Both the position numbers and the translations under genes were made by a program. A stretch of DNA of 64,000 nt from a virus. Where the stretch lies: positions 21,767-85,766 of IMG/VR virus record IMGVR_UViG_3300026382_000012. The stretch is one strand, 5' to 3'. Below, one piece after another: positions 17,379 through 36,523 of the stretch. The first letter of the stretch is position 1; each line of letters starts with the position of its first letter. The notes below the pieces were generated by a model. It ran no database searches and had not been told where the DNA came from. It saw only the letters and a program-made list of their open reading frames with translations.

Positions 17379-18140
17379 ATGGTTAAGTTTTGTTGTAAGA
17401 AAAACGAAAAGTTTATGCTGTCAGAACATGAAGTAATAAACCTAATTAACAAATATATTCATAATATGGTTGTATATATATTAAAGGCAACTATAGATTT
17501 TGATAGAATGGTTACACTAGAATTTGTTATGGATAATAAGTATTTATCAAATACAGTAATAGTTAATATTAATATGTTAATTGATAAAGAGACGATAAAT
17601 TCTAAAGATGTATATAATACAATAGAGAAATCCCTATATAAAATTACGCGGTTTGATTTTGAACATATTTATGATAGAATAAATGTTCAAGACTATGGTT
17701 TAAAGATTGATGAGTTTTTTATTCCGAATGATGTATTTAGTCTTATTGACTTTAATTCAAAATTTTACGTCAATGAAAGTATATATTCTATGTTATTGGT
17801 GCCGCCGCAATATATAGACGATTTTATAACAGAATCGGAAATAGACGATATACATGATAATCTTATCTTATTGATAGATGAGATCGAAGATGTAATTGAC
17901 GTTTGGAAATATCCTATTACTATTGTTTTATCCGGACATAATACTTACATATGCAGCAATACATTACGTATTGAAAAAATACCAATCTCTACACATAAGC
18001 TAAAAGATATATTATCTAACAAAGAATGGAATGAAGAGAAATTTAAATTAGTTGATTTCTTACTTAAACATCTGTATGGATTATATGATAAAGATATAAG
18101 AGATGTGGCCATGAATAAGTTAAAACTGCAAATACTATAG
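17379..18140 (+). CDS. Hypothetical protein, C-terminal motif group
   Basis: ATG at 17379 follows the junction motif; ends VAMNKLKLQIL. Confidence 0.8.
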   Translation: MVKFCCKKNEKFMLSEHEVINLINKYIHNMVVYILKATIDFDRMVTLEFVMDNKYLSNTVIVNINMLIDKETINSKDVYNTIEKSLYKITRFDFEHIYDRINVQDYGLKIDEFFIPNDVFSLIDFNSKFYVNESIYSMLLVPPQYIDDFITESEIDDIHDNLILLIDEIEDVIDVWKYPITIVLSGHNTYICSNTLRIEKIPISTHKLKDILSNKEWNEEKFKLVDFLLKHLYGLYDKDIRDVAMNKLKLQIL

Positions 18141-18161
18141 AACTACTTAAAGAGAGGAGCG

Positions 18162-18650
18162 ATGTTAGTTTATGCAACAATTAATAAAAAATATTCCACG
18201 TTTATAGAATCTAGAAAAATGAAAAAATTTATAGACAAAATTATTGATTTATTCAATAACAATGTATGCATTAACCTTACTGCATACGGATTTATAGACA
18301 TCGAAATTTACAGAATATTAACTAGAGATAAAGATAAAGAGAAGTTATTAATATTGGATATTGAGTTAAAACATATATTTAGTTTCATTTTAGAAATGAC
18401 TAATACTCAAGAAAATTGGAATAAGCTATTTAAGCTGACTAAAAATCCTACCAAGATAGTTAAATACGAATACATCTATAAAAGATTATCTAAAGAATCT
18501 CAATTTATTTATTTTGATTCAGAATTGTTGAAATTATTTGATCGCCCTATACCATTATTCAACTTAGAAATATTAGAATTATTCGATCGCGCAGTTTCAT
18601 TAAATGAAATAAAACAAAACATAAATAAAGCGAGAAAAACATGTACGTAG
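18162..18650 (+). CDS. Hypothetical protein
   Basis: 162 aa, GAGGAG RBS; short internal repeat LKLFDRPI/LELFDRAV. Confidence 0.7.
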   Translation: MLVYATINKKYSTFIESRKMKKFIDKIIDLFNNNVCINLTAYGFIDIEIYRILTRDKDKEKLLILDIELKHIFSFILEMTNTQENWNKLFKLTKNPTKIVKYEYIYKRLSKESQFIYFDSELLKLFDRPIPLFNLEILELFDRAVSLNEIKQNINKARKTCT

Positions 18651-19393
18651 TAAAGACAAGAAACGATACTTATATTTTAGAAACTAAAAAAGAATTATTA
18701 TCATTTCTAAAAAAGAACATAAGTAGATTTGAATATATTACAATTGAATATTTATTCGGCATTATGCTAGAAATACTTAATAACACCATAAATTCAGAAG
18801 TAATTGATATTTTGTTAAAAATGAGTGAATATAGCGCAGTAAATAATATTGCATTATATCGTAATAATGAATTGGCTATCAATAATTTAGTTTTTGAAAA
18901 ATGGAGTATTGATAGTCTCCGCAAGCTTCTTAAATATCTTAAACTCGATTACTATGATCCAAAAAAGATTTTTCAACTTGATTGGAAATTTATATTTAGA
19001 GATTTGAAAGATCTACTTAATTTCTTAGAGGATTCATATCTATGTGTTTCAAATACTAATAATAATCATTACATAATCGATCTAAGAAAACATATATCTG
19101 AAGATAGTATAATTAGTGTAAATAGTGATACATTCAAAATTCAAGAAATTGTCTATGGTGAAAAATGGAAAATTATACTCGATGAATTTGGTACGGAGTA
19201 TTTTTATATAATCGGCGGGCGCGATGATTTTCTAAACAAAATATCAACACTCCTATGTTCTATACAAAAATTTAATCTAGATATAGTTAAAAAACATATT
19301 ATTAAATATCTAGCAAAGCAACAAAAAAATACATTTACAATTGATATTCTTGATGAGCTTAGTAACTATATTAATATTGTTATGAAATTCTAA
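18641..19393 (+). CDS. Hypothetical protein, C-terminal motif group
   Basis: 250 aa; ends DELSNYINIVMKF. Confidence 0.8.
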   Translation: MYVVKTRNDTYILETKKELLSFLKKNISRFEYITIEYLFGIMLEILNNTINSEVIDILLKMSEYSAVNNIALYRNNELAINNLVFEKWSIDSLRKLLKYLKLDYYDPKKIFQLDWKFIFRDLKDLLNFLEDSYLCVSNTNNNHYIIDLRKHISEDSIISVNSDTFKIQEIVYGEKWKIILDEFGTEYFYIIGGRDDFLNKISTLLCSIQKFNLDIVKKHIIKYLAKQQKNTFTIDILDELSNYINIVMKF

Positions 19394-19415
19394 CTACTTT
19401 AAAGGGGGCGTAAAA

Positions 19416-19715: not shown

Positions 19716-19724
19716 GAACACGGT

Positions 19725-20534
19725 ATGTTCGTCATAAATAATTTAGATAATTTAATAATAGAGACAAATAACAAACATGCATTATTAAAAATATTAAATA
19801 AAATTTTTAATTCTGATTCGATTATTATTAAAGATAAAAAGAGAAGATACTACATAAATAATGTTAATCATAAAACTATTAAAGTACTAGAAAAAATATT
19901 GGATATCAGATTTAATTTTGAGAACGATATTGATATTTTGGAGATTACAGATAATCTTACATTATTGAAGATAAATCCCATTTGTAATTTTATCATTGAT
20001 AATTACTTTATAAACAATTTCGATAAAATTTCAAATGAAGATATAACCAATTGTCTAAATAATATTGTTAATAGTCAATATGTAACGCCGACGATTTACA
20101 TTAAAGACATAGTAAAATATACTAGAATAGAAAATAAATTAATTGGTAAAAAAGATTATAGCAAAGACTTATATGTAATTTATACAACAAATGATCCCGA
20201 TATTCTTACATTCATTATAAAATGCATCACAAAACATCACCTGAATATAGAAGAATTTATATTTGATCATTATGTATATGCAAATAAAATAATCTTTACA
20301 AAATCTATTTTCGAATATTACATCAAACGAGATAAAAATAATATGCTGAGGCTTCTAAAATACCCAAATATCATTAAACGATACAATAACCAAAAATTTG
20401 TGATTAAGATGCGTGATATATTTCCAGTTATGCTTTTTAATACTATTATGCCGCCGCAATATTGTATAGGAATAATAGATAGCAAAGAAAAATATACAGA
20501 AATTATTAACTACTTAAACATAAGTCGTCTATAA
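19725..20534 (+). CDS. Hypothetical protein, C-terminal motif group; paralog of 20565..21428
   Basis: Shared YVTP.IYI.DI.KY and EEFIF.HYVY.N; ends EIINYLNISRL. Confidence 0.85.
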   Translation: MFVINNLDNLIIETNNKHALLKILNKIFNSDSIIIKDKKRRYYINNVNHKTIKVLEKILDIRFNFENDIDILEITDNLTLLKINPICNFIIDNYFINNFDKISNEDITNCLNNIVNSQYVTPTIYIKDIVKYTRIENKLIGKKDYSKDLYVIYTTNDPDILTFIIKCITKHHLNIEEFIFDHYVYANKIIFTKSIFEYYIKRDKNNMLRLLKYPNIIKRYNNQKFVIKMRDIFPVMLFNTIMPPQYCIGIIDSKEKYTEIINYLNISRL

Positions 20535-20564
20535 AATCTAAAAACTACTTCAAAGGAGTACGAA

Positions 20565-21428
20565 ATGTACCAAATAATTACAACTAACGGAAAACAAACA
20601 AACTGCATAGCCATTGAAAATAAAGAAGATTTATATAAATTACTACATACCTTAACAATTAGTTCATATCAAATAAAAGACTTAAAACAAAATATAACAT
20701 GTTACATCTGCAATGTTAATGTAGTTAAAACAGATTACACAATCAAAATATTAGATAAAATATTTCAAGATACCAAGTTAAGTAGTAAATATAAACTATT
20801 CAGACTAGGACATGTCGATCAATATACATTTCTTGATATTATAGATGAAAAGTATAGTCATGAATATATATGCACAATAGACAGTTTGTATAATTGGAAA
20901 ATGAGATTTATTATCGATGAAGAATTCTTTAATAAGGATACAATAGCAGAATATATTTACAAAATAGATGAAGAATCCTATGTAACACCAGTCATTTATA
21001 TTAGCGATATAGAAAAATATATTGACTCCAGCAGTAAAATGGTATTAGATGATAAAGTTATATACGCCGCTAATAATATCAGCATTATTAAAAATTTGAT
21101 AAAATTAAAATATGATAAAGTTAAGCGGCTTTACTTGGAAGAATTCATATTTAATCATTATGTATATTTGAACGGGATAATATTTGCTAAAGATTTCTTT
21201 GAAGATATCATAATAAATGAAAATGCGCTAGATGATCTAAAGATGATATTAACTTGTGCTAAAGATATTAAGAAATACTTTGATCAAAATAATATAGTTG
21301 TTACTACTAATATCGCGCCGGTTTTCTTCTTTTCAGCACTTAAACCACTAAAATATACTATTGGTATAATAGATAACATGGAAAAATATAATCAGTTAAT
21401 CAATCACGCAAAACTAAGAATGCTATAA
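20565..21428 (+). CDS. Hypothetical protein, C-terminal motif group; paralog of 19725..20534
   Basis: Same shared blocks as 19725..20534; ends QLINHAKLRML. Confidence 0.85.
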   Translation: MYQIITTNGKQTNCIAIENKEDLYKLLHTLTISSYQIKDLKQNITCYICNVNVVKTDYTIKILDKIFQDTKLSSKYKLFRLGHVDQYTFLDIIDEKYSHEYICTIDSLYNWKMRFIIDEEFFNKDTIAEYIYKIDEESYVTPVIYISDIEKYIDSSSKMVLDDKVIYAANNISIIKNLIKLKYDKVKRLYLEEFIFNHYVYLNGIIFAKDFFEDIIINENALDDLKMILTCAKDIKKYFDQNNIVVTTNIAPVFFFSALKPLKYTIGIIDNMEKYNQLINHAKLRML

Positions 21429-22140: not shown

Positions 22141-22186
22141 TAATATTTTTAGAGGATAGATATAGATATTGTTGGAAGGTGATAGA

Positions 22187-22948
22187 ATGACGAACAAACT
22201 TTCATTACTAAACGATAATTTATTCTTTAATAATAATCAAATAGTCAAATCACAAAACCAAATATATGGCATTATTAAATTATTAGAATCAGTGCCCGGG
22301 GAAGTTATCCTACCAAATAAAAAATACATTAAACTAATAAACACTATATATGGATATCATTATAAAACTAACTTAGATGTTGATGATCTAATAGAGCTAA
22401 GTGATTACATCGAATATAAAGCAAAAATGACTTCCTTATTAGAAACAATTGAATGCTATCCTAACATCATTTTTACACCAAATAATGTTATTATTAATCT
22501 AGAATATAACGAATCGATAGCATTTACAATAAAAATTAGTCATTATTCAAATAAATCTAATAAATTAAATGTTATTCTTGAGGATGAACGTTTCGATGAA
22601 TTTAGATGCAATTATTATAACATAAATATATATTGCTCATATCTAAACTATGAAATCGGCAAAGAATATTCTAGAAAAATTTATTCTAAGTTTAAAATAT
22701 TAATTAATGCTTTTGAAGATCTAGATATCAGAATTTCTGTATTATTATCAAAATCAATATTCTATGTACTAATTAAACATTTTGATGTAATAGGTTCGTT
22801 TGCGAGAGTTTTTGAATATGGTGATTTAGAAAATAATAACTTTGAGCATAAGATGATTGAAATGTTGAGCGGGATAAAAAACAAAGATATTAAAGAATTA
22901 ATTACAAATACGGCACGATTAAAACATCTTCAATTAAAGCATTTTTAA
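22187..22948 (+). CDS. Hypothetical protein, C-terminal motif group
   Basis: ATG 22187 after GAAGGT; ends ITNTARLKHLQLKHF. Confidence 0.8.
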   Translation: MTNKLSLLNDNLFFNNNQIVKSQNQIYGIIKLLESVPGEVILPNKKYIKLINTIYGYHYKTNLDVDDLIELSDYIEYKAKMTSLLETIECYPNIIFTPNNVIINLEYNESIAFTIKISHYSNKSNKLNVILEDERFDEFRCNYYNINIYCSYLNYEIGKEYSRKIYSKFKILINAFEDLDIRISVLLSKSIFYVLIKHFDVIGSFARVFEYGDLENNNFEHKMIEMLSGIKNKDIKELITNTARLKHLQLKHF

Positions 22949-22957
22949 AGGAATATC

Positions 22958-23611
22958 ATGCCAGGAATAATCAAAGTTTTAGAAATAACTAAAAAGAAAA
23001 ATCGAATACAAAGAACACTAACAGAATTAATAGTTCCAAATAAATTAATACTTGCAAATACTAGAGGTATAGCATTATTAGATAAAACAGATAATGATGA
23101 ACAATTAGAAATAAATTATATTCATATTCTTCATTATAATATTCAGGAACTAATGAAATACTTTATAGAAAATTCAAGGAAATTATCACATTTATTAAAT
23201 CTTATAAAATTATTTATAGAAACTAACTGTTGCTTAACAATATGCCATAAAAAGAACAGCCCTATAAAAATTGATTTTTCTGTATATAATAGTACGTTAA
23301 TATTTTCAAGCTATAAAGAATTAAATAATTTCATTAAAAATAATGTATTTTATGAAAATATAGAACCAAGTTCCATTAATTTAATTACTTTCGAAGGTAA
23401 AAAAAATAGGCTAAATGAAATAAGAAATAAGTTGGCTAAAATAATTAATATATTAGATCTTGACATATTATACATGACTAATAAGTATGAATTAATAGAT
23501 ATTGATTATAGAACAGATGAAGAAATCATTAATATGTTTTTATGGTATCTGCATATAAACGGTAAACAATATGATACTATTAAAAATTTAATTACGTTAG
23601 AACATTTTTAA
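22958..23611 (+). CDS. Hypothetical protein, C-terminal motif group
   Basis: Ends DTIKNLITLEHF. Confidence 0.8.
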   Translation: MPGIIKVLEITKKKNRIQRTLTELIVPNKLILANTRGIALLDKTDNDEQLEINYIHILHYNIQELMKYFIENSRKLSHLLNLIKLFIETNCCLTICHKKNSPIKIDFSVYNSTLIFSSYKELNNFIKNNVFYENIEPSSINLITFEGKKNRLNEIRNKLAKIINILDLDILYMTNKYELIDIDYRTDEEIINMFLWYLHINGKQYDTIKNLITLEHF

Positions 23612-23623: not shown

Positions 23624-24079
23624 ATGTGGAAAGAAGTAATAACGGCCGGCGTAATTTTGGATAAAAAATTGCAAAAATTTAAAGAACTACATAATAAACT
23701 ATCCTACATAACAAAGTACGATATTGATGAATTATATATATGCACTAAAAATTGTTCATTTATAGTTTCTAAATTTAAAAATTATTATTTTAGATTATTT
23801 ATTCTTGACTCGGAAAATTTTGATTATGCAACATTAGAACATTTATGGGATACTACAATGCATATTATCAGAAATAAGTTTAGAAATATAAAAAATGTGT
23901 ACTATATCAATTTTAAGTATACAATAAATAATGTAGATATCGAAATTATGACTAAAAGAAATCACAATATAATTTACTTAAACAACATACATAACAAACA
24001 TAGTAGTTTACATTTTATCTGTGATAAAAATGATGAAATAATAAACCTCTTGTTTGCTAGTTTTTATAAATCTATCTAA
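23624..24079 (+). pseudogene. 5' fragment of an array gene truncated at IS607 element 2; paralog of 26498..27136
   Basis: MWKEVITAG vs MLKEVIAGD, LWDTT vs LWNTT, ICDKNDE vs VCNNDDE; similarity stops just before the element. Confidence 0.7.
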
Positions 24080-24111: not shown

Positions 24112-24756
24112 ATGTCTAATAAATACTACACAACTAAGGAATTTATGCAAATTACCAAAATACCGAAATCTACTCTTTATAAGTATATAAAAGAAGGTAA
24201 AATAACACCTTATAAATTACCAAATAAACAATATAGATTTACAGATGAACACATAGAACAAATATTAAATATACATAAAAATATAGCTGATAATCATATG
24301 AAACTTAATATTATTTATGCGAGAGTTTCAAGTCAAACGCAGAAAAAATATATACAAAATCAAATTAAGTACTGCAAAGAATTTTGTATAAAGAACGGAA
24401 TAATTATTAATGATATTATATACGATATTTCATCCTCATTTAATTTTAATCGGCCCGGATTATTAAAAATCTTAAAATTATTAAAAGAAAATAAAATCAA
24501 TAATTTAATAGTATACAGTAAAGATCGTTTAACAAGATTAGCTTTTGATTTGTTTGATAATCTATTCAAAATATATAATGCGAATATAATTGTAATTGAC
24601 AATTCAGATATTCCTATAGATGAATTAGATAGAAAAGATTTAATTGACGAGTTAGTATCATTTATTCATTATATAACTTCTAAAATATATGGAAAACGAA
24701 AATATACTAAAAGCAAATTGAAGGAGATAATCAATGAAGAAATTAAGAAGAGTTAA
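24112..24756 (+). CDS. tnpA: IS607 TnpA serine-recombinase transposase
   Basis: N-terminal HTH, IIYARVSS, RPGL, SKDRLTR, DELVSFIH..IYGKR. Confidence 0.95.
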   Translation: MSNKYYTTKEFMQITKIPKSTLYKYIKEGKITPYKLPNKQYRFTDEHIEQILNIHKNIADNHMKLNIIYARVSSQTQKKYIQNQIKYCKEFCIKNGIIINDIIYDISSSFNFNRPGLLKILKLLKENKINNLIVYSKDRLTRLAFDLFDNLFKIYNANIIVIDNSDIPIDELDRKDLIDELVSFIHYITSKIYGKRKYTKSKLKEIINEEIKKS

Positions 24757-26050
24757 GCAAATTTTTAAAACAAAGAAATCGCTATATCATAAAGTTGAAA
24801 AAATTATGTGTTCATTTAACATAATTAAAAATGAAATGTATAATCTTGTTAATTATTATTATGATAAAACAGGTGATATTAAACCTTTTATAACTGGTAG
24901 AAATTTATATTACATAATTACTGGAAATAAAACACTACCATATCATGATCAAAACATACAACAAATATTAAACAATATACGAAATGCACAAATAATAAAT
25001 CAAAAAGTAAAAACTGATATTATTAATATTGCATGTGAAATAATTAGGCGCGAATTGAAATCTGTCGTAGGTAAATGGAAGAAAGGTCAAAAGGCTTCCT
25101 TGCCAAAACAAAAGAATTTTAATGATTTATTTACGTATTCATTAGAAATACCAAAACGAATGATTAAGGATTTAAGAAAAAGAAAGAGAAAACCTGAAAA
25201 TGCAATATTAATTACTATTCAAAAAGGCATTTATATTAAACTTAAAATTGATAAAAAATTTCCAAATATTAATTGCATAACAATTATCTGGAAAAGAGAT
25301 ATTGGTGTATACTTTAATATTATTTATGAAATAAATCAAGAAGATATTGCATTAAATAAAGATAATTGGATATCAATTGATTTAGGAATTAATAACTTCG
25401 CATCAATAGTTTCAAATCATATAGATTCTATTATTATCTCAGGCAAAAATTTGAAATCTTTTAATCAATGGTATAACAAATTATATGCTAAATTACAAAC
25501 AAAAGGTAATGATAAATTGAGAAGAATATTAACTGATTATCGTAAACGAAGAATTAAGATGTTTTATCATAATACTGCAAATAAGATTATAGATATCTGT
25601 TTGGATAATAATATAGGTAAAATTATAATAGGCAATCCAACTACATTGTTTCAGAAAAAATCTAAATATTCTAAGAAATCAAACCAAAATATTAGAATGG
25701 TAAATTTAGGAAAATTTATTAATATTTTAAGATATAAATGCGAACAATTTGGTATAGAATTTCATATTGTATCTGAAAATTATACATCTGTTTTGTCATC
25801 AATTACCGAAAATATCACAACATTTACATATGAATATCTAAAATCGATATATAGCAAACTCAAGAAAAATCGTATTAAAAGAGGTCTTTTTAAAGACCAT
25901 AAAATTAATAAAGTTTTTAATGCAGATTTAAATGGCGCATTAAATATAGCTAAACAAATAATAACAAATTTACATAAATTAATTCAAGAACAATTAGATA
26001 TATACATTGATAAAATTTCTAGGGCAAATAAATTAGTAATATATTTTTAA
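24734..26050 (+). CDS. tnpB: IS607-type TnpB RNA-guided endonuclease
   Basis: SIDLGINN, IIIG with VSENYTS, NADLNGALNI. Confidence 0.93.
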   Translation: MKKLRRVKQIFKTKKSLYHKVEKIMCSFNIIKNEMYNLVNYYYDKTGDIKPFITGRNLYYIITGNKTLPYHDQNIQQILNNIRNAQIINQKVKTDIINIACEIIRRELKSVVGKWKKGQKASLPKQKNFNDLFTYSLEIPKRMIKDLRKRKRKPENAILITIQKGIYIKLKIDKKFPNINCITIIWKRDIGVYFNIIYEINQEDIALNKDNWISIDLGINNFASIVSNHIDSIIISGKNLKSFNQWYNKLYAKLQTKGNDKLRRILTDYRKRRIKMFYHNTANKIIDICLDNNIGKIIIGNPTTLFQKKSKYSKKSNQNIRMVNLGKFINILRYKCEQFGIEFHIVSENYTSVLSSITENITTFTYEYLKSIYSKLKKNRIKRGLFKDHKINKVFNADLNGALNIAKQIITNLHKLIQEQLDIYIDKISRANKLVIYF

Positions 26051-26051: not shown

Positions 26052-26154
26052 AAGTATTCCGTGAGTCCTTTAATAGGATAGCGGATAGTAATGCCTAGTA
26101 TTGGTTAATTATAACCAATACTAGAGACACCTAGTTAGGAATTAAAGAACTAGG
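26052..26154 (+). ncRNA. Putative omegaRNA scaffold of element 2
   Basis: GTAT-TCCGT-GAG-TCCT..AGGA-TA-GCGGA-TAGTAATG, then hairpins CTAGTATTGGTTA/TAACCAATACTAG and ACCTAGTT/AACTAGGT. Confidence 0.72.
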
Positions 26155-26440
26155 TACACTTATTGTTAATCACAATGATCCTGATATATTAAAAATAGTT
26201 GAAGAAATAACTGAAAAGTACATAGAACCATACTTAATCAAACTTTTTAATTCAACAAATACAGAAAAATTTGGCTTTTTGGTTGATTCAAAGAATTATA
26301 TTGATTATTATTTTATCGCGCGCGGTAAAATATTTGATGATTTCTACCGCGCTATTTATGAATTATCAAATATCAAAAACATCTTAAATATTAAATTTGA
26401 GGAGTTTAAAAATTTTCTGAAATTAATCCCTTTAATCTAA
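26153..26440 (+). pseudogene. 3' fragment (95 codons) of an array gene interrupted by element 2
   Basis: Start-less open frame GTLIVNHNDPDILKIVEEI..KFEEFKNFLKLIPLI* carrying the group C-terminal motif; not in the ORF track. Confidence 0.75.
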
Positions 26441-27235: not shown

Positions 27236-27342
27236 CCTCCTAATCTCCTACTCAATAATAATCTAACATAATACTTTGAGTAGGATTTCGGAGGACAAAG
27301 TAACTACCGTCCCAGGCCCTATATCAGGTTCCTGGTTGCTTT
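27236..27342 (-). ncRNA. Putative omegaRNA scaffold of element 3
   Basis: CCAGG..CCTGG stem, then terminal hairpin CCTCC..TCCTACTCAA/TTGAGTAGGA..GGAGG, similar to the right end of element 1. Confidence 0.65.
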
Positions 27343-28719
27343 TAATTCATTAACAATAAGTGAAATATTAGATTGTGTTAAAGTTGTTATATTAAACTTA
27401 ATTGGATTTGCTAATTTAATTAATTTTAGTTTATCAGAAAAATTTTTAAATGCGTTTTTATAAACGCATCTGATTATGTTAAATGCACCATTAATATCAG
27501 CATTCCATATTTTATTGATTTTAGGATCGAAATAAGAACCTCTGCCGTATTTACGATATATATGTTTTTCATATATTTTATTAGTAATTGCAGATTTAGC
27601 ACTAGTGTAATACTCTTCAACTATAGTTACTTTAATACCATATTTTTCACCTTTATATTTCAATTGATTTATTAAAACCGAAAATGGTATTGAATAAAAA
27701 TTCTGGTTATTTCTACTGCCAAGATTAATATTTTGTTTAGCAGAAGGCAAATCACCTATTATTATTTCATTTATTCCGTATTGTTTACATATTTGAATAA
27801 TTTTATTTGTAATCTGATGAAATACACTCTTAATTCTTCTATTTCTATATGCAAATAATTTGCGATACATATAAATTAAGTCTTTCTTTTTATCTTTATC
27901 AGTTTCCAAATCTATTTTACTTCGTAATTTGGCTAAATGTTTATTTGCCCACTGATTGAAAGATTTAATTTCATTACCGGAAATTATAAAACTTTTTAAA
28001 TTAGGATTATTACTTATTGCAGAAATCAAATTACTAATACCTAAATCTATACCTAATTTGTAATTTCCAGTAACATTTTCAAATTCTGATAAATCAACTT
28101 CATAATAAATATCCAAATAAATATCAGTTAAAGACATTCTAATACCAAATGTTTTTATATTATTTGGATCTATATACTTTAGTTTACTAAATTTGATATT
28201 AAAATGTAGATTTTTATCTTTTGTAGGTTTAATCAAATAAGTATTATCATCAATAAGTTTGAATTGCCTATGACAAAGTATATAATTTACATTGATTATT
28301 TTATCAAGCTTTTTAGGACGAGGTATACCAGGTTTATTTTCTATTTTACCATTTTTATACTTTTTAAGCAATGCAAAATAACTTTTATATTCTTTATCTA
28401 CTTGTTTATTGGTAGCTTGGAAAAAATCACTGCCATTATGTTTGTAAATATTTTGGATATTATTTATAATATTTATTAGTGATGAATCTAATTGAATTAA
28501 CTGATCGATTAACTCTTTATCTCTACAATTTGCAATCTTATCTCGTTGTTTTAAATCGAGATATTTAGATGTTAATTCAAAATATTTATTTATAAGTATG
28601 TAAAGTAAGTTTTTAAGATGTTGAAATCTTAATAAAGAAGAGCGGGCGATCTTTTTCTTATCACCCCGCAATCTAACAGATAAAACATACTTAACTTTCT
28701 TTTTCTTCAATTCCGACAT
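27319..28719 (-). CDS. tnpB: IS607-type TnpB RNA-guided endonuclease
   Basis: GIDLGISN, IIIG with VEEYYTS, NADINGAFNI. Confidence 0.93.
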   Translation of the reverse strand: MSELKKKKVKYVLSVRLRGDKKKIARSSLLRFQHLKNLLYILINKYFELTSKYLDLKQRDKIANCRDKELIDQLIQLDSSLINIINNIQNIYKHNGSDFFQATNKQVDKEYKSYFALLKKYKNGKIENKPGIPRPKKLDKIINVNYILCHRQFKLIDDNTYLIKPTKDKNLHFNIKFSKLKYIDPNNIKTFGIRMSLTDIYLDIYYEVDLSEFENVTGNYKLGIDLGISNLISAISNNPNLKSFIISGNEIKSFNQWANKHLAKLRSKIDLETDKDKKKDLIYMYRKLFAYRNRRIKSVFHQITNKIIQICKQYGINEIIIGDLPSAKQNINLGSRNNQNFYSIPFSVLINQLKYKGEKYGIKVTIVEEYYTSAKSAITNKIYEKHIYRKYGRGSYFDPKINKIWNADINGAFNIIRCVYKNAFKNFSDKLKLIKLANPIKFNITTLTQSNISLIVNELKATRNLI

Positions 28720-29329
28720 CTTTTAATACCTCATCTTTTAATTTTTTAATTTTTCTATAATTTCGTGTACCGTAAATCTTCATAGCATAAAGATGTATTA
28801 TACGTACTAATTCTTCTACAATATCTTGTACTCTGTCATATTTAATACTATCTTGATTTATAACTACCAATTCAATACCTAATATATCAAATAATGTTTT
28901 AAATAAATCAAAACCAATTCTAGCTAATCTGTCTTTATCAGCAATAACAATTCTTTTCGGTTTATAAATATAACATGTTTTTAGTAATTCTTTTAATCCT
29001 TTTCTATTAAAATTAACAGATGAACCAATATCTTTAATTATTTTAGATATTTGCCAACCATTAGCAATGCAATATTTTTCACAATATTCAATTTGATTTT
29101 CTAGATTATTCTTTTGTTTAGTTGTTGAAACTCTACAATAAATAATTGTATCGTAATTTTCTGATATATCTTTCTTTATTTTACCTAATTTATATAGTGT
29201 TTTTAAATGTTCATCTGTATATCTTCTTTTGCCACCAGGCGTACGCAATGGATTAAGAATATTATCATAACGACGCAAAGTTGAAATGCTTAGACCAGTT
29301 AATTTAGAAAATTCTTTTATATTATACAT
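28691..29329 (-). CDS. tnpA: IS607 TnpA serine-recombinase transposase
   Basis: GLSISTLRRYD..RTPGGKRRY, IYCRVST, KDRLARIGF, EELV..IYGTR. Confidence 0.95.
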   Translation of the reverse strand: MYNIKEFSKLTGLSISTLRRYDNILNPLRTPGGKRRYTDEHLKTLYKLGKIKKDISENYDTIIYCRVSTTKQKNNLENQIEYCEKYCIANGWQISKIIKDIGSSVNFNRKGLKELLKTCYIYKPKRIVIADKDRLARIGFDLFKTLFDILGIELVVINQDSIKYDRVQDIVEELVRIIHLYAMKIYGTRNYRKIKKLKDEVLKDVGIEEKES

Positions 29330-29923
29330 TTATTACCTCCTATTTCACTATTCAAAATACTACTCATTATTATATCGTAATATAGATTATATAACTAATG
29401 AGTAGATTTAACACAATAAATACCATTATGAAAATTCATTGCCGCTATTTATTGATCTATTAAATTTGCGCAGGGGTTTTGAGTATCAAACATTTGTAAA
29501 TAACCTAGAAATACTTATAACTTATAAAATAAACTTTAACGATATGGTTTTATATCTAGATGAAATTAATACATCAATTGATATTAATGGATCAACTCCG
29601 CGCAATATATTTTCGAATCTAGATTTTGAAAAGATAAAAATAAGTAAAAATATAACTTGGATTAGATACAACAATACAAACGAAAATATTGATAAAGATT
29701 TGATAATGAAGATACTAAATGCTATTAGAACATTAAGTAAATCTACTGTTTTTTACATACTAACATTTAATAACATGTTACTATTCAATGAAGATGCTCT
29801 CGATTATTATGAGATAAAAGAACATATTAATACGCCTAATTTTCTTAACTACATAGCAAGTAATATAAATGACATCCAGATATTTGATGAAGATTTAGTT
29901 AACTTTCTAAACGTGAAGAGGCT

Positions 29924-30631
29924 ATGATGCATATTGAATCAATAAGCTTGGATAATGCAGATAAACTATTACTAATTGCCGAAAGTAAGAAATATCTACT
30001 TTCAGCAGAGATAATAGAAAAATTAAAAAAGATACGCAGAAAAATACATATTGATCTAAACATAATTGATAGAGATAAAAATAGTTCATATATGTATATT
30101 GAAAATAACAAAGAACTAATGGTTGTATATATGTTTAACGAAAATATCAAAGAAGAGTTATTTAACGAATTTGTGAATAAGAAACTTGATTTCGCTCTAT
30201 TATTATTTGATGAGGATGATAAATATTCTGACTTTTTTAAATTTATTAGTTCTATTAAGAATTATGTTAGAATTATTGATTTTATTGATTCTTATTCTGA
30301 TGGGTATAATGTTAATATTTATTTTGATAAATATATTCCTGTTGTGCTGTCTTCTAATAATTTAGAAAAATTTAGATTTTATCGAACCGCTCGCGGATTT
30401 TACTTTATAAAAGAACACCTTTCCGAATATGAAGAACTAGAAGAAATTTTTAAATCATTTAAATATACATATATCGTAATCGATAAAATAATTACGATAT
30501 ATGATAGAAATAACTTTATCATGTCCATAAATATCTTATCTGAAGATTTTTACGAAGTCAAATGCCTATTATATAATGATATGCTTGACCCTTCGGAAGT
30601 CGAAAATTATGTAAGGTTCGAAAATGTCTAG
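29924..30631 (+). CDS. Hypothetical protein, C-terminal motif group
   Basis: Ends SEVENYVRFENV; overlaps both neighbours. Confidence 0.8.
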   Translation: MMHIESISLDNADKLLLIAESKKYLLSAEIIEKLKKIRRKIHIDLNIIDRDKNSSYMYIENNKELMVVYMFNENIKEELFNEFVNKKLDFALLLFDEDDKYSDFFKFISSIKNYVRIIDFIDSYSDGYNVNIYFDKYIPVVLSSNNLEKFRFYRTARGFYFIKEHLSEYEELEEIFKSFKYTYIVIDKIITIYDRNNFIMSINILSEDFYEVKCLLYNDMLDPSEVENYVRFENV

Positions 30632-31322
30632 TTCTAATAATTACTACCTCATTATAAACGAAAGCATTATGTACAATAAATTTACAGATACAATTATAAA
30701 AATAAATATAAACAGGCTTTTTAAACCAATACCTGCGTATAATGAATATAGAACATATATGAAAGTTTTTGAATTATCAGGAGATGAAAAATTATTTACG
30801 TTTGAAATCGATAACATTGCCATTTTGAAGATATATGTTAAAGAAAAAGATAATTTAGTTAATACCGTCAATAAATGGTTGAATAAAACTGAAATAAATA
30901 ATTTATTTGAAATGTTTTGTAATATAAAAACAAATGTTGAAGCGCATTATGATATTAACAATAATATTAAGACTATTAATATCAATAATCAGTTATATTT
31001 TGAACTTCCTTTTAATATAAAAATTAAGAAACTAGTCGAGCATTTACCAATATATGTCATCAACAAAAAGAATAATACCATTATAAGAAAAATACAGAAT
31101 TTATTCTACGAATTAAGTCGAAACTCGCGCCTAAGACACATCAATAATAATTTTATATTACTATGCTATAAAGATAAGATATATTATATTTGGGGCGATA
31201 CTATTATAGAATACACAGAACAAACCAAGCAAGATATAATATATGATGTTTTATATAAAATTTTGAATCTGAAAATAGAAAAGAATGCATTTATTAATCT
31301 TATGAAATTAACTAGATTCTAA
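30624..31322 (+). CDS. Hypothetical protein, C-terminal motif group; distant paralog of 33293 and 34926
   Basis: IIKININ vs ILKINIK, KDKIYYI vs EDKIFFV, KILNLKI vs KMLNLKI; ends AFINLMKLTRF. Confidence 0.8.
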   Translation: MSSSNNYYLIINESIMYNKFTDTIIKININRLFKPIPAYNEYRTYMKVFELSGDEKLFTFEIDNIAILKIYVKEKDNLVNTVNKWLNKTEINNLFEMFCNIKTNVEAHYDINNNIKTININNQLYFELPFNIKIKKLVEHLPIYVINKKNNTIIRKIQNLFYELSRNSRLRHINNNFILLCYKDKIYYIWGDTIIEYTEQTKQDIIYDVLYKILNLKIEKNAFINLMKLTRF

Positions 31323-31338: not shown

Positions 31339-31923
31339 ATGATGTATACTTACCTAATAGCCACGCCATTGTATACGATAAATTACTATTCAGAAAATAA
31401 AAAGAAAGATCTAAAAGAAATCGAAGAAACATATTATAAACTAGTTAAAAAGAGTATCGAATTTTATAAGAAAATTTATAACACAAATAGTGATTTAAAA
31501 ATTGAAAATAGAAATGTGTCTTATCGTGAAAACTTTTGTTTAAATCTTAATGCATTATTAACATTAAGAAAATTAAACGGCGCGCGTATTGTAAGAGCTT
31601 TCTTTAGTACATCTTATACCTTATATGGAGTAAAAGTTAAATTATCAGATAAATATCTAGAAGAATTAATAAACGAAATCAGATACCTTATAAACATAAT
31701 AAATAAAACATACAAACAATACAGAAAAAATATTTCAATTTCACATGTTGATATTATATATGTTTTTAAAGCAGAAAATGAAATCTATAAAAAATTGAGG
31801 TTAGAATTACTAAATAACCGCGCAATATCAAAAGAGATAACCAACTTAAATATTTCTGATAGGCAAGCAGTAGAAATAGCAATAAAGGAGCTGTTTAATA
31901 AGGTTCTACTTACAAAACTTTAA
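31339..31923 (+). CDS. Hypothetical protein, C-terminal motif group
   Basis: Ends ELFNKVLLTKL. Confidence 0.8.
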   Translation: MMYTYLIATPLYTINYYSENKKKDLKEIEETYYKLVKKSIEFYKKIYNTNSDLKIENRNVSYRENFCLNLNALLTLRKLNGARIVRAFFSTSYTLYGVKVKLSDKYLEELINEIRYLINIINKTYKQYRKNISISHVDIIYVFKAENEIYKKLRLELLNNRAISKEITNLNISDRQAVEIAIKELFNKVLLTKL

Positions 31924-31944: not shown

Positions 31945-32622
31945 ATGTTAAAATTTATTGAGAGTATATGGCTCTCAACAAAGTTATTCTTTAGCAAAGC
32001 AGATTGTTATTTTATCAATAACAAAAAAGGATATATTAAAGTTAAAACACGCCCGATACATTTTATATATAAAAATGAAAATTACAATTTTGCCATTATA
32101 CATATTCCATTTGAAGAAATAAAGATACTATATATCCCAGATAGAACTTTATTGCTAAATTTTAGTAACGAAACTGAGTTACATCATTGGATAAATACCG
32201 TTTTGCAATTAGTTGAAGATGAGATAATTTTGGAAGATCATTTTAATTCTTCTCTTACTATTGGGCATATAGAATATTGTAAAACTGCACCGATTGATGA
32301 GATATTAAGCAATTTTAAATTTGAAGAGCATGAACTTAATAAAACTGACAATACTATTAATATTGTCGCGCACCATAATGAAAACTTAGACGATATAATA
32401 ACATTTATAATTAATACTCTAAGAAACATATCAAATAGTATCTCAATTATTAATGATATATATGTAATAATTGGTTATGGCCAGATAACAATCAAATACG
32501 GTAAAAGAAAATTAACAAAATTGATAGAAAAGATTAAAGATACTGATATTTATATGTTGTTCATTAACGATATTAAGTTAATAGAATTAATTAAAAATCA
32601 TAATCTATTAAAGAAGTTATAG
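31945..32622 (+). CDS. Hypothetical protein, C-terminal motif group
   Basis: Ends LIKNHNLLKKL. Confidence 0.8.
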   Translation: MLKFIESIWLSTKLFFSKADCYFINNKKGYIKVKTRPIHFIYKNENYNFAIIHIPFEEIKILYIPDRTLLLNFSNETELHHWINTVLQLVEDEIILEDHFNSSLTIGHIEYCKTAPIDEILSNFKFEEHELNKTDNTINIVAHHNENLDDIITFIINTLRNISNSISIINDIYVIIGYGQITIKYGKRKLTKLIEKIKDTDIYMLFINDIKLIELIKNHNLLKKL

Positions 32623-32634: not shown

Positions 32635-33315
32635 ATGTGGGAAGCAGAAACCTTTTATACATACACAGTAGCTTATAATATTAATAAAAATGTAAACATT
32701 AAAAAAGAACATTTAATTAAATTTATAGAATTAGTAGAATATTTTTCGGAAACTATAAACTTATATATAAGAGCATTCTATAAAACTCTAGTAACAGTAA
32801 AATACGATGGTTTAGTTATTAAACTGATATTCGATAAAAATATGACACAAAGAGAATATGATGAATTAATTGATAAATTAGATAAAATTACGCCTCAAGA
32901 ATTAAGAAATTTCTTTCACAATCAAATTACAAAAAATGTAGTTGAATACATAGAAATATTAGATTACGAATCAATCAAAATAGTATTTAAAAACTTAACT
33001 ACTTATATTTTAAGTATTGATGACATAAATAACTTTAAAGAGGGATATCGTCCGGAAAAATCCGTATTTTTGTTAAATAAGAGAAATCCGAATAATACTG
33101 AAATAATCAAAATAGTAGATAGGTTATCAAAATTATTTAATCATTATTTCTTAGTAATCGATAATATATTACTTATATATAACGATAGTTTAGATATATT
33201 AAAGATAATTACCCCTATTGACAAAATAAAAATTAATGATATAATTAGTCAGTTGACTTTTGAAAAGTTTACTCTAGAGGAACTGAATAATTATGAAAAA
33301 CTCCGTGCGCTTTAA
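32635..33315 (+). CDS. Hypothetical protein, C-terminal motif group; paralog of 34252..34923
   Basis: Long shared blocks (KFIELVE, LIDKLDKIT, SKLFNHYFLVIDN); ends ELNNYEKLRAL. Confidence 0.85.
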   Translation: MWEAETFYTYTVAYNINKNVNIKKEHLIKFIELVEYFSETINLYIRAFYKTLVTVKYDGLVIKLIFDKNMTQREYDELIDKLDKITPQELRNFFHNQITKNVVEYIEILDYESIKIVFKNLTTYILSIDDINNFKEGYRPEKSVFLLNKRNPNNTEIIKIVDRLSKLFNHYFLVIDNILLIYNDSLDILKIITPIDKIKINDIISQLTFEKFTLEELNNYEKLRAL

Positions 33316-34042
33316 ACAAACATTATATATAATTTTAGATAAAGAAAATCTATTAATATACGATAAAGATAAGATACTAAAAATCAATATAAAAGAAATC
33401 GAAATCGATGAAATATCTTATTTTAAAAAACACATCCTGAAATTATCATACAATAATAAAATATATTACGAATTTGAGTTTAGTAATTATAGAAATAATA
33501 GACAAAAAAAATTATCAATAGAGTATTGTACGAATAATGATAATATTGTAGATGTTGTTAATAAAATAATGAACAAAAAATCCATAATACCATTTATGTA
33601 TTATATAGCAAATGCAAAAATAGATAACTTAAATGTTATTATATCTGAAGACAATGATAATATAATCGAAATTAATGGAATCACTTTACGTGCACCGCGC
33701 ATTAAAACATCATATGATATAAGTTATTTTGCGTCGTCAACGTACATTCGTTATTTATGTATAAATACATATTCTGATAAAATACACAATAAATTGGGAG
33801 AGATATCGAAAAAAATAATAGATAAAATAAGTAATTTAAACATTCATAGTCCAATATTTACAATAGATTTTGATTATATAGTTTTTGAGAGCAGAATATT
33901 CTTCGTATTAAATAATTATATACGAGAAATAAAGGATGAATTAGATATACAAGAAATAATATTAATGTTTATGAAGAAAATGTTTAACTTAAAAATAAAT
34001 GATGAAGAGCATACATCATTACTTAAACTAATGATGCAATAA
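33293..34042 (+). CDS. Hypothetical protein; paralog of 34926..35687
   Basis: Shared ILDKENLL, YFKKHILK, FDYIVFE; ends EHTSLLKLMMQ. Confidence 0.85.
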   Translation: MKNSVRFKQTLYIILDKENLLIYDKDKILKINIKEIEIDEISYFKKHILKLSYNNKIYYEFEFSNYRNNRQKKLSIEYCTNNDNIVDVVNKIMNKKSIIPFMYYIANAKIDNLNVIISEDNDNIIEINGITLRAPRIKTSYDISYFASSTYIRYLCINTYSDKIHNKLGEISKKIIDKISNLNIHSPIFTIDFDYIVFESRIFFVLNNYIREIKDELDIQEIILMFMKKMFNLKINDEEHTSLLKLMMQ

Positions 34043-34064
34043 ACTACTTTAAAGGAGGTAAACG

Positions 34065-34239: not shown

Positions 34240-34251
34240 GGAGAAGTTGCA

Positions 34252-34923
34252 ATGTGGAAAGTAGAAGCTTTTCATTCATATATAGTGGCTTACGACATTA
34301 ATGAAAATATAAATGTAAAAAGAGAACATTTAACTAAATTTATAGAATTAGTAGAACATTTCTCAGGAACTATAAATTTATATATAAGATTATTCTACAA
34401 ATTTTTAGTGTTGATAAAATGTGACGACTCAATTATTAAAATAATGTTTGATACTAGTATAACGCAAAATGAATACAATGAATTAATCGATAAATTAGAT
34501 AAAATCACGCACCGACTAAAAGAAATAGGAAATTTCTTCCATAATCCAGTCACAAAAAATATGGTCGGATATATAGAGATATTAGACTATAGATCAATCA
34601 AAATAGTATTTAAAAATTCAACTACTTATATCCTAAATATTGATGATATAAATAACTTTAAGGAAAAAGTAATACATAAAAAATCTATATTATTACTGAA
34701 TAAGAATAATCCAAATAATGTTAAAATAATTAAAACAATAGATAAATTATCGAAATTATTTAATCATTACTTCTTAGTAATCGATAATATGTTACTTATA
34801 TATAACAATAGTCTAGATGCGTTAATAACAGTTATCTCTATTGATAAAGTAGAGATTGACGATGTGATTAAACAATTAACTTTTGGATTATTTACCTCAA
34901 AGAACCTCAAAGGAGTTAAGTAG
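34252..34923 (+). CDS. Hypothetical protein; paralog of 32635..33315 with altered C-terminus
   Basis: High similarity; tandem ACCTCAAAG duplication at 34894-34912 shifts the last codons. Confidence 0.85.
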   Translation: MWKVEAFHSYIVAYDINENINVKREHLTKFIELVEHFSGTINLYIRLFYKFLVLIKCDDSIIKIMFDTSITQNEYNELIDKLDKITHRLKEIGNFFHNPVTKNMVGYIEILDYRSIKIVFKNSTTYILNIDDINNFKEKVIHKKSILLLNKNNPNNVKIIKTIDKLSKLFNHYFLVIDNMLLIYNNSLDALITVISIDKVEIDDVIKQLTFGLFTSKNLKGVK

Positions 34924-34925
34924 CT

Positions 34926-35687
34926 ATGAAAACCGCACGCCTATACACAATATTAGATAAGGAAAATCTACTAGTAAATGATAGTAACGAAATACTAAAA
35001 ATTAATATAGAAGAAATAGTTGATGAAATGGGTTATTTCAAGAAACATATTTTAAAATCATCATATAATAATAAAATATGTTACGAATTTAAATTTAACG
35101 AGTATGGAAATAGTAGACCGAAGAAATTATCAATAAAATATTATACAAATAATGACAATATTGTAGAAGTTGTCAATGAAATAATGAACGAAAAATCTAT
35201 AGTAGCATTTATATATTACATAGTTAATGCAAAAATAGACAAACTAAATGTTACTATATCTGAAGATAATGGAGTCATAATTAAAACCAACGAAATAACT
35301 TTACACGCGCCGCATATCAAAGCATTATGCAATACAAATCATTCTATTTTGTCATTTGCATTGCCATCAACATTTATAGCAAACACACATATTTGTAGTC
35401 TATGTATGAATACAAATTTTAGTAAGGCATATAATAAATCAGACAAAATAACAAGAAAAATAACGGATAAAATAAACAGTTTAAATATACACAAACTAAC
35501 ATTTACAATAAGCTTTGACTATATAGTTTTTGAAGATAAAATATTCTTCGTATTACATGACTATATACGAGAAATAAAAAATGACGCGGATATACAGGAA
35601 ATAGCATTGTTATATATAAAGAAAATGCTTAACTTAAAAATAACTGATGAGGAATACGCCACATTGTTTAAATTATTGATGTTGTAA
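34926..35687 (+). CDS. Hypothetical protein; paralog of 33293..34042
   Basis: Ends EYATLFKLLML. Confidence 0.85.
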   Translation: MKTARLYTILDKENLLVNDSNEILKINIEEIVDEMGYFKKHILKSSYNNKICYEFKFNEYGNSRPKKLSIKYYTNNDNIVEVVNEIMNEKSIVAFIYYIVNAKIDKLNVTISEDNGVIIKTNEITLHAPHIKALCNTNHSILSFALPSTFIANTHICSLCMNTNFSKAYNKSDKITRKITDKINSLNIHKLTFTISFDYIVFEDKIFFVLHDYIREIKNDADIQEIALLYIKKMLNLKITDEEYATLFKLLML

Positions 35688-35713
35688 ACTACTTTAAAGG
35701 AGGTTAGAATAAA

Positions 35714-36523
35714 GTGTTTAGTGCAATCGTACATAAATTACCTTACTTTCCTCACGCTAAATTATACAGTTGTGTAATAACTGAAGATAATAAGCTTATT
35801 TATAGCGGACTTATATATTCGCCACATGAAATATTAAAAAACATATCCAATAAAATATTCAAAGATGTTCTTGAATATCTAGTAACATCTGGATATATAA
35901 TTGATTGGGATAGTACTATTATTAAATTTGATCCTTTGCGAGAAGATATCTTTATTGACATGTCTAGATTATCAATACTTGGTTTTAGTAGAATTAAAAA
36001 TATGACCATTTCTACTAAACTGGAAGTATACCAAAAAGCGATACCTGACATATCTGATGTTTTAAAAATCGCTAGAGGACTTTCTTATGTATCATTTGCA
36101 TCATTGGAGGATATTTTAATATACATATCACAAGGCAATTCTAATTACATAAATATAGAAATAAGCAATACTGCTAGTACTATTGAAACTAAAAATTCGC
36201 GCGAATATTTTTCACAATTAAAATTCGAAAAAATTGAAACAGATAAGTTTTCATGGATAAAATATAACGATAGTACTATTAAAAAAGAATTGATATTGAA
36301 AGTAATAAGTATAATAAATACATTGATAAGAGCCGATGTAAAACCAAATATATTAACAATAAGTGATTTATTAGTAACATCCGGCGGTTATGTATTTAAT
36401 AAATACGAACTGGAAGAACGGATAGGATCATCAGATATGTTTAATTATATAGCCAGTAAGATAGATCATATAGAAGTTTTCGACGACGAATTAATCAACT
36501 TTATGAATATAAAGAAATACTAA
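35714..36523 (+). CDS. Hypothetical protein, C-terminal motif group
   Basis: GTG start after junction motif; FEKI..WIKYN..NYIAS shared with the IS-split gene; ends DELINFMNIKKY. Confidence 0.85.
   Translation: MFSAIVHKLPYFPHAKLYSCVITEDNKLIYSGLIYSPHEILKNISNKIFKDVLEYLVTSGYIIDWDSTIIKFDPLREDIFIDMSRLSILGFSRIKNMTISTKLEVYQKAIPDISDVLKIARGLSYVSFASLEDILIYISQGNSNYINIEISNTASTIETKNSREYFSQLKFEKIETDKFSWIKYNDSTIKKELILKVISIINTLIRADVKPNILTISDLLVTSGGYVFNKYELEERIGSSDMFNYIASKIDHIEVFDDELINFMNIKKY

Follow-up and report, generated by a model that had tools for sequence, protein, structure and literature searches.

Short peptides at the ends of otherwise dissimilar proteins can act as addresses. In T-even phages, the capsid targeting sequence (CTS) is the sole conserved part of diverse, fast-evolving accessory proteins encoded at a plastic locus, and it is read by one partner (PMC3012670). 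In NorQD, the extreme hydrophobic C terminus of NorD docks on the ring of the MoxR-type NorQ, and deletion of the last two residues abolishes co-purification (PMC13036017). Here we describe a C-terminal tail encoded by an uncultured, very AT-rich phage (G+C content about 25%), in a stretch of 64,000 nucleotides (the window; bases 21,767–85,766 of the linear, 85,766-bp virus record IMGVR_UViG_3300026382_000012). At least 19 otherwise unalignable accessory proteins of this record close with the same 12-residue, predicted helical tail, which is kept by selection at the protein level. A short terminal address on diverse proteins is of a known kind; the C-terminal variant is new, and stands in a lineage with almost no sequenced relatives. 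Genes are named below by their first base in the window, and features upstream of the window are given in genome (record) coordinates.

The CTS differs from the phage tail in being N-terminal, about 10 residues long, cleaved by the prohead protease and dedicated to head loading (PMC3012670), whereas the tail is C-terminal, predicted to be helical and unrelated in sequence, on genes that look early or middle. Nor is the (L/I)-x-E N-terminal cleavage signal of CTS-type peptides found, the peptide being C-terminal with Glu at −11 in about half of the members. Encapsulin cargo peptides (PMC7925596) are C-terminal, common to unrelated cargo and dock inside an HK97-fold shell; unlike the tail, they come after a flexible linker and differ in consensus, and the phage family shows no sign of late expression or packaging. 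For Bacillus phage G, a lineage-specific expansion to about 35 zinc-ribbon proteins is described (PMC7824862), a similarly large within-genome growth of small accessory proteins, and some tail carriers are zinc-ribbon proteins too. That expansion is defined by the zinc ribbon, however, whereas here the C-terminal helix is shared and most bodies lack a zinc ribbon.

C-terminal peptides of AAA+ protease systems (the XB peptide of SspB, ssrA-like and MuA-like signals) likewise join a variable body to a short C-terminal address for an unfoldase. SspB has a long flexible linker before its XB peptide, and ClpX signals comprise 3–6 residues at the very end. The phage tail, by contrast, has its key residues at −10 and −8, no linker and a different motif sequence. 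An SspB-type layout of folded domain, long linker and peptide is not what we see: the sequence before the tail is not linker-like, and AlphaFold2 renders the helix as contiguous, at low confidence. Phages do encode Clp adaptor-like proteins, among them SPO1 Gp53, which resembles a ClpC adaptor (PMC6873191).

The parallel with NorD rests on form and on gene content. A position-dependent hydrophobic C terminus plugs into the concave face of the MoxR hexamer (PMC13036017), and in the phage, the genes for a MoxR AAA+ ATPase and its vWA partner stand between tail-bearing genes. Only one cofactor docks in NorQD, with a vWA finger inserted in the pore as an aid, whereas the model for the phage involves about 20 non-vWA proteins; the phage tail, unlike NorD, tolerates 1–5 extra residues and is dissimilar to the ...[KR]IIKI end of the phage's own vWA partner. 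MoxR/peptidase-vWA pairs and ClpP occur in jumbo phages, with virion assembly or anti-host proteolysis as proposed roles (Iyer et al. 2021, PMC7824862), and the record contains this machinery (PHROG 1297 with PHROG 1314/DUF2201, and ClpP). A tagged protein family does not figure in the part of that account used here; the connection of this machinery with the tail is our own suggestion.

A shared tail closes plus-strand proteins

The original prediction, made from the sequence alone, listed 13 plus-strand proteins and six near variants with a position-locked C-terminal signal, all of which we located in the sequence as described. Of the 88 non-overlapping open reading frames (ORFs) of at least 80 amino acids (aa) in the 85.7-kb record, 13 end in a strict form of the pattern ([LIVMFYW/A] at −10, N at −8, and [LIVMFYW] at both −4 and −1), compared with about 0.5 expected from the rate of this form at internal positions (0.61%). 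The motif is thus commoner than background, with a naive Poisson P of ~1e-14 that is still far below 1e-9 when detectable paralog pairs are counted once. Using a leave-one-out position-specific scoring matrix (PSSM) from which close paralogs were also left out, 11 of 13 C termini rank in the top 0.1% of 22,671 non-member internal windows. Among non-member proteins, the three highest-scoring 'internal' matches each fall 2–5 residues from a C terminus, and are therefore further members with short extensions.

In a six-frame census, the scores of all 866 stop-delimited segments of 30 aa or longer were bimodal, with 19 segments scoring 13.4 or more and the next best 7.5. All 19 are real long ORFs on the plus strand. 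The matrix was trained on 18 of them; the untrained one, a fragment ending at 26440 from a member split by an insertion sequence (IS), scores 14.2. As an outside control, 564 ORFs of 27 phage loci encoding distant MoxR homologs yielded no tail score of 8 or above. On the minus strand, strict pattern, PSSM and six-frame census gave no convincing tail, in agreement with the original prediction, which had not noted it in the structural proteins encoded there. The family extends upstream of the window, to at least three genes listed in Table 1.

Its register is less rigid than first described. Asn lies exactly at −8 in the 13 strict tails, but five clear carriers (18641, 22169, the IS-split fragment and two genes upstream of the window) continue for 1–5 residues beyond the motif. 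Seventeen of the 19 carriers end in a hydrophobic residue, and two of the five extended ones in a polar residue.

Once the register is corrected, conservation among 16 representatives spans −12 to −1 and stops abruptly upstream, giving the consensus [DE]-E-h-x-N-[YFL]-h-[KN]-h-x-x-h (h, hydrophobic). Asn at −8 is present in 16 of 16. Position −12 is D/E and −11 mostly E; −10 is hydrophobic in 88%, −4 in 100% and −1 in 94%; −7 is Y/F/L/H/K and −5 K/N/R. The acidic residues at the start of the tail and the basic ones towards its end fit helix capping, and both of our low-confidence AlphaFold2 models render the segment as a helix. If the tail is helical, −11, −8, −4 and −1, with their 3-4-3 spacing, would share one face.

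Constraint acts on the peptide

Over the last 12 codons, corrected information amounts to 5.85 bits at codon position 1 and 5.74 bits at position 2; position 3 has 2.48 bits, and the T/C that Asn requires accounts for 0.83 of them. Hydrophobic positions of the tail are encoded by TTR, CTN, ATH, GTN, TTY and TAC codons. Because the information concentrates in codon positions 1 and 2, the constraint sits on the peptide, not on the DNA, which is what the synonymous codon variation had first suggested.

A shared protein end could also be the by-product of a DNA or RNA signal at gene ends, such as a junction element, a ribosome-binding region or a terminator, and the locus does hold a junction element, AACTACTTTAAAGGAGG, in 10 copies (0.2 expected), all on the plus strand. 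Its copies lie at stop codons or immediately behind them, and end in the Shine–Dalgarno sequence of the next gene. Read in frame the element would give N-Y-F-K, resembling the motif core, and the final three codons (K-L-F/L, stop) of 931 and 1655 come from it. These are the only two tails that it overlaps, however. The other copies begin at or after the stop, and one precedes the first gene of the array, with no plus-strand gene upstream; the element therefore belongs to gene starts, not ends. With Leu, Ile, Val and Phe at −4 and −1 drawn from many different codons, and the information in codon positions 1 and 2, a nucleotide-level origin is largely refuted and essentially excluded. Used as bait in IMG/VR, the junction element recovered nothing beyond isolated chance matches; the contigs concerned are unrelated and have a higher GC content.

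Most bodies show no detectable similarity

Among the bodies, BLAST links five member pairs only; a sixth link joins 30624 with 33293/34926 (full-length and collinear, 28% identity). Paralog identities are graded (67, 63, 34–39 and 28%), and a two-gene cassette is duplicated (32635–33293 and 34252–34926). The gradient and the cassette show that the array arose, at least in part, by tandem duplication. The ratio of non-synonymous to synonymous substitution rates (dN/dS) is 0.18–0.29; these are therefore real genes under purifying selection.

Further tests were run after trimming the last 12–14 residues. Iterative hidden Markov model (HMM) searches with the trimmed bodies found no subfamily links beyond the BLAST pairs, and leave-one-out HMMs built on the 65 residues that precede the tail did not link the subfamilies. 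Smith–Waterman z-scores of trimmed bodies did not exceed those of same-genome controls (p = 0.33), nor did hhalign scores (p = 0.17), whose alignments were not collinear. The initial description of the bodies as mostly unalignable holds in that three methods show no excess over controls; the paralog pairs are detectable at 28–67% identity. The larger members have 194–287 aa. The zinc-ribbon carriers upstream of the window (genome 13586–14005 and its paralog) have 126–139 aa and paired CxxC motifs. Array members lack paired CxxC and are Cys-poor, several with zero or one Cys. Judged by these patterns, the tail sits on at least two body types, a CxxC...CxxC zinc ribbon and a larger Cys-poor body.

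Outside the record, relatives are scarce. Pfam and PHROGs returned no above-threshold match for 15 carriers and five neighbours, and the ESM Atlas no usable neighbour for the bodies. The tail family and motif are not described in Pfam or PHROGs; the literature search was aimed at analogies and context, not at the motif. For gene 20565, a word-based homolog search found nothing, and an exhaustive HMMER search returned the query itself, one ortholog and one fragment only. The ortholog, P0100 (265 aa, from another assembly), ends in ...NHAKLRMM where 20565 has ...NHAKLRML; it thus retains the N, the L and the hydrophobic end of the tail at 37% body identity.

AlphaFold2 modelling from the two best alignments (three sequences each) reached a predicted local distance difference test score (pLDDT) of 51 and 41. 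Both models have the same C-terminal order of helix, three strands, helix and tail helix, a weak suggestion that the larger bodies may have a common C-terminal subdomain. With these poor models, Foldseek against the PDB gave nothing below E 0.25, and in VIA-align (wide) the best Z was 4.7, with no fold assigned. When the sequences ahead of the tail were tested for the pattern of a common β-hairpin, the outcome was weak to marginal, with 5 of 18 members against 5 of 58 controls.

All this bears on whether the larger members are simply old tandem duplicates of one diverged fold, with no handle at all. The C-terminal helix would then be the most constrained core element, its Asn buried, visible only because the stop codon anchors the alignment, whereas conserved positions elsewhere are obscured by indels. 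On this view, the zinc-ribbon carriers would be a fusion with, or a partial relative of, the same C-terminal subdomain. We regard this, the main rival to the reading favoured below, as possible but doubtful. The identity gradient with its full-length collinearity fits it, as do the narrow size range of the larger members, the C-terminal order common to both low-confidence models, the lack of a linker before the tail and the mostly hydrophobic N-terminal half of the helix around the Asn; within detectable paralog pairs, moreover, the tail is not more identical than the body (25–58% versus 22–61%). It is harder to square with body similarity no higher than in controls by three methods, with the weak hairpin test, with a tail that also occurs on clearly different, much smaller zinc-ribbon proteins, and with an Asn at −8 kept in many lineages whose bodies diverged beyond detection. 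Gene 34252 also speaks against it. This paralog of 32635 lost its tail where the junction with the next gene was rebuilt, an insertion creating a stop codon and an AAAGGAG ribosome-binding site (window 34880–34930 compared with 33270–33320), and its body is intact and constrained; the helix is thus not obviously needed for the fold. Another member is interrupted by an IS607-like element and yet another truncated beside a second such element, so single members are dispensable.

Candidate readers upstream of the window

Four genes for protein-remodelling factors lie within 8.3–15 kb of the record (genome 8338–14961) and are candidate readers of the tail: an HslU-like unfoldase, a MoxR ATPase, a vWA-peptidase and ClpP (Table 1). 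HslU is not known to pair with ClpP, and an HslU-like ATPase beside ClpP instead of HslV is unusual. Neither HslV nor ClpX was found in the 85.7-kb fragment, a record about 33% complete by CheckV. The two best tails outside the arrays flank the MoxR/vWA pair, one on the gene directly before MoxR and the other on the gene directly after the vWA protein. The suggestion of a protease or AAA+ partner made in the original prediction thereby gains circumstantial support, from an HslU-like/ClpP/MoxR–vWA cluster that holds tail-bearing genes.

MoxR itself ends in ...TEIINDLKFV (...TEIINDLKFA in an 88% relative), which fits the first nine motif positions and stops two residues early; its score of 8.7 is within the range of chance internal matches, and we dropped it as motif evidence. 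Distant phage vWA/peptidase proteins end in ...GKIIKIEN (L016:5404-6762), ...GKVINV (L017:5620-6993), ...GKIIKIQ (L019:8347-9708) and ...GRIIRIN (L020:8502-9866). This conserved basic–hydrophobic end of the phage vWA/peptidase partners recalls the NorD C terminus that docks on NorQ.

The tail as a possible docking handle

We tentatively favour, at a little under even confidence, a reading in which the tail is a common docking handle, possibly for AAA+/proteolysis machinery, because the pattern is kept on unalignable bodies and on two body types, and because a tail-less paralog survives. The array would be a lineage-specific, fast-diverging family of non-structural accessory proteins, grown largely by tandem duplication, whose constant part would be a 12-residue C-terminal α-helix that zinc-ribbon proteins elsewhere in the genome also carry. 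The conserved face of that helix (E −11, N −8, h −4 and h −1) would dock all members on one shared partner while the bodies vary. The best candidate partner would be the phage's own cluster of HslU-like unfoldase, MoxR AAA+ with its vWA/metallopeptidase cofactor, and ClpP; in the most concrete model, by analogy with the hydrophobic C terminus of NorD on NorQ, the tail would dock on the MoxR ring. We infer the exposure of the helix, its binding and the identity of the partner. What stands of the modular system first proposed, with variable bodies and a common helix, is the peptide-level constraint, bodies no more alike than controls and at least two body types.

Several observations weigh against a docking handle. 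The narrow size range and the continuous gradient of paralog divergence fit one old fold. No flexible linker sets the tail apart, and in the low-confidence AlphaFold2 models it is the final helix of a compact C-terminal region. What persists within paralog pairs is a pattern, not letters, as a core helix would also show. Extensions of 1–5 residues after the motif speak against recognition of a free C terminus, the basis of the NorD precedent. The link to the MoxR neighbourhood is post hoc and rests on two genes, and the vWA partner ends in ...SRIIKIR, with the conserved ...[KR]IIKI end, to which the tail motif is dissimilar.

A more specific version, in which a library of some 20 or more interchangeable adaptors binds different host or phage proteins through its bodies and plugs the helix into the phage's AAA+/proteolysis machinery (MoxR–vWA–peptidase, HslU-like or ClpP), we consider unlikely. 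If true, it would be a phage counterpart of the substrate-adaptor families by which eukaryotic viruses feed host defence proteins to degradation machines. Large phages are rich in fast-evolving ORFans that offer no experimental handle, and the tail is a short peptide on about one-fifth of this fragment's genes; identification of its reader would place some twenty uncharacterized genes in a process in a single step. Should the reader be the phage AAA+/protease cluster, a function would also follow for the MoxR–vWA–peptidase and ClpP genes, which are found repeatedly in big phages and have so far been given proposed roles only.

The same machinery could instead destroy the tail-bearing proteins. 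As a C-terminal degron, the tail would mark early or middle proteins for timed removal by an AAA+ protease, be it the phage HslU-like unfoldase and/or ClpP or host ClpXP, its basic residues followed by a hydrophobic end acting as in MuA-type ClpX signals. Flynn and colleagues reportedly distinguished in 2003 the C-terminal ClpX recognition classes ssrA-like (LAA) and MuA-like (RRKKAI). The tail is indeed enriched in K/R/N at −5, −3 and −2 and hydrophobic at its last residue, and both a true ClpP and an HslU-like ATPase are among the phage's gene products. Pore-type AAA+ recognition, however, reads the last 3–5 residues, and the strongest constraint here lies on Asn −8 and hydrophobic −10. With the +SK and +EEK extensions, two good tails finish in polar residues, and +QLKHF is tolerated too, which argues against a strictly carboxylate-dependent signal. 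With ClpX and HslV not found in the fragment (a record about 33% complete) and HslU not known to pair with ClpP, a degron seems to us rather improbable, even though jumbo-phage ClpP has been proposed to act on host proteins (PMC7824862).

The original prediction also named a sliding clamp. T4 gp43, gp33 and gp55 bear C-terminal clamp motifs, and the PIP box reads Q-x2-h-x2-aromatic-aromatic. The resemblance, by that first analogy, would lie in a short hydrophobic C-terminal motif common to several proteins. It is weak: the two pieces of the split PolB have ends without the motif (...ETYIDIVKD and ...KNNVLSFN, both with low PSSM scores), the N-x3-h-x2-h spacing is unlike that of the PIP box, and about 20 ORFans of 200–290 aa on one clamp are implausible. 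The incomplete 85.7-kb fragment gave no match to gp45, PCNA or DnaN, and we give a clamp-binding tail very little credence.

Timing of expression and the capsid

A promoter-like element, ATATAGATATTAT, occurs almost exclusively on the plus strand, before replication and modification genes and before and within the ORFan arrays (Table 1). Since these genes and the arrays have the element in common, the tail family is probably early or middle, not late, and the distribution suggests one temporal class driven by a phage-specific signal.

This timing bears on a further role, in which the tail would direct about 20 different proteins to the prohead, from which they would be ejected into the next host; the prohead protease might cut the tail off behind its acidic residues at −12/−11. 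Precedents exist: T-even internal proteins are diverse anti-defence proteins that share the capsid targeting sequence only (PMC3012670), and encapsulin cargo has C-terminal targeting peptides (PMC7925596). The phage has a T4 gp21-like prohead protease, and E/D are enriched at −12/−11, often with a hydrophobic residue two positions before. Yet the genes lie on the plus strand, under the promoter-like element of the replication and modification genes, while the structural genes are on the minus strand; Glu at −11, present in about half of the members, would not make a general cleavage site; and the members are large (25–33 kDa) and numerous. Capsid loading is therefore highly unlikely in our estimate.

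Genome context and features of the locus

The record is probably a fragment of a much larger hydrothermal-vent phage. The same proteins are also found on a 129,858-bp contig in public assemblies. Sequencing runs that hold the sequence are labelled as hydrothermal vent metagenomes, with a second, unlabelled study; no RNA dataset is among the listed runs, and contigs from four of the runs show strain variants. The minus strand carries myovirus structural and packaging genes (including a T4-type large terminase, a gp21-like prohead protease and a baseplate wedge) and a DnaB-like helicase; the tail sheath distantly resembles those of AR9, PBS1 and phiR1-37. The plus strand holds the ORFan arrays within the window and, upstream of it, replication and DNA-modification genes (QueC/QueD, ligase, split PolB).

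None of the cultured phages is close to this one, nor is any IMG/VR contig, as judged from scans in which a family member, the tail sheath and a terminase relative served as queries. Terminase relatives of 80–91% identity are confined to very short contigs. With a terminase relative as lead, JGI metagenomes yielded a 17-kb contig of structural genes only; the family alignment had no match in JGI metagenomes. A scan of GTDB genomes added a 26.5-kb contig, binned as Patescibacteria, again with structural genes only.

Table 1 Features of the locus (w, window coordinates; g, genome coordinates; tails are given without their extensions)
Feature	Position	Strand	Length (aa)	Tail	Remarks
Member	w 931..1638	+	235	...KELANLHKLKLF	Last three codons overlap junction element
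Doubtful member	w 1655..2377	+	240	...IYRRIKLL	Four CxxC pairs; Ile replaces Asn; last three codons are junction element
Member	w 17379..18140	+	253	...DVAMNKLKLQIL	Length from ATG at 17379; first gene of long array; junction element 17358-17374 upstream
Member	w 18641..19393	+	250	...DELSNYINIVMK	Extension +F, register +1
Member	w 19725..20534	+	269	...TEIINYLNISRL	Paralog of 20565; low-confidence AlphaFold2 model
Member	w 20565..21428	+	287	...NQLINHAKLRML	Sole member with outside ortholog (P0100, tail ...DEIVNHAKLRMM)
Member	w 22169..22948	+	259	...ELITNTARLKHL	Extension +QLKHF, register +5
Member	w 22958..23611	+	217	...DTIKNLITLEHF	
IS-split member, N-terminal part	w 23624..24079	+	151		Interrupted by IS607-like element; paralog of 26498 (33% over 140 aa)
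IS607-like element	w 24112..26050	+			Serine recombinase 24112-24756, TnpB-like 24734-26050; splits member 23624/26135 (partly translation reading)
IS-split member, C-terminal remainder	w 26135..26440	+		...EEFKNFLKLIPL	Extension +I, register +1
Member	w 26498..27136	+	212	...EEVINYASILLL	
Second IS607-like element	w 27319..29329	-			TnpB-like 27319-28719, serine recombinase 28691-29329; adjoins truncated member 29439
Truncated member	w 29439..29927	+	162	...EDLVNFLNVKRL	Aligns to residues 110-268 of 35714
Member	w 29924..30631	+	235	...SEVENYVRFENV	
Member	w 30624..31322	+	232	...NAFINLMKLTRF	Collinear full-length paralog (28%) of 33293 and 34926
Member	w 31339..31923	+	194	...KELFNKVLLTKL	
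Member	w 31945..32622	+	225	...ELIKNHNLLKKL	
Member	w 32635..33315	+	226	...EELNNYEKLRAL	Tail codons overlap start of 33293
Degenerate member	w 33293..34042	+	249	...EEHTSLLKLMMQ	Ser replaces Asn, Gln last
Tail-less paralog	w 34252..34923	+			Recent paralog of 32635, 67% identical, dN/dS 0.25
Degenerate member	w 34926..35687	+	253	...EEYATLFKLLML	Thr replaces Asn
Member	w 35714..36523	+	269	...DELINFMNIKKY	Last gene of array
Zinc-ribbon paralog	g 7941-8321				Paralog of g 13586-14005
HslU-like AAA+ unfoldase	g 8338-9735				TIGR00390, 326 bits full length, below 362-bit cutoff
Member	g 10057-10566			...DEVVNRIKLTIL	Extension +SK; directly before MoxR
MoxR-type AAA+ ATPase	g 10600-11802				PHROG 1297 (E 1e-45), Pfam AAA/AAA_5
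Metallopeptidase/vWA-like protein	g 11851-13377				DUF2201_N + DUF2201, PHROG 1314
Member, zinc ribbon	g 13586-14005			...EDLVNIVKLILL	Extension +EEK; directly after vWA protein
Bona fide ClpP	g 14383-14961				TIGR00493, 335.7 bits, above cutoff
Member	g 19588-20445				
Junction element AACTACTTTAAAGGAGG	w 326, 1628, 2367, 3078, 17358, 18141, 19392, 20543, 34042, 35687	+			
Promoter-like element ATATAGATATTAT	g 3733, 7229, 15484; w 2173, 15651, 16993, 21445, 22161 (variant), 55339				
TnpB-like gene	w 4014-5474	-			IS607 family

Two further observations concern neighbours of the family. Inside the first plus-strand array, window 2388-3077 (+) encodes a protein of 229 aa whose translation reads as an N-terminal transmembrane segment and coiled-coil-like repeats, with a candidate lytic-transglycosylase-like motif (E-S...GLMQV). 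Three IS607-family TnpB-like genes, mutually 37–40% identical, lie in the window; two of the three are accompanied by a serine recombinase, one such element splitting a member of the tail family and another adjoining a truncated one.

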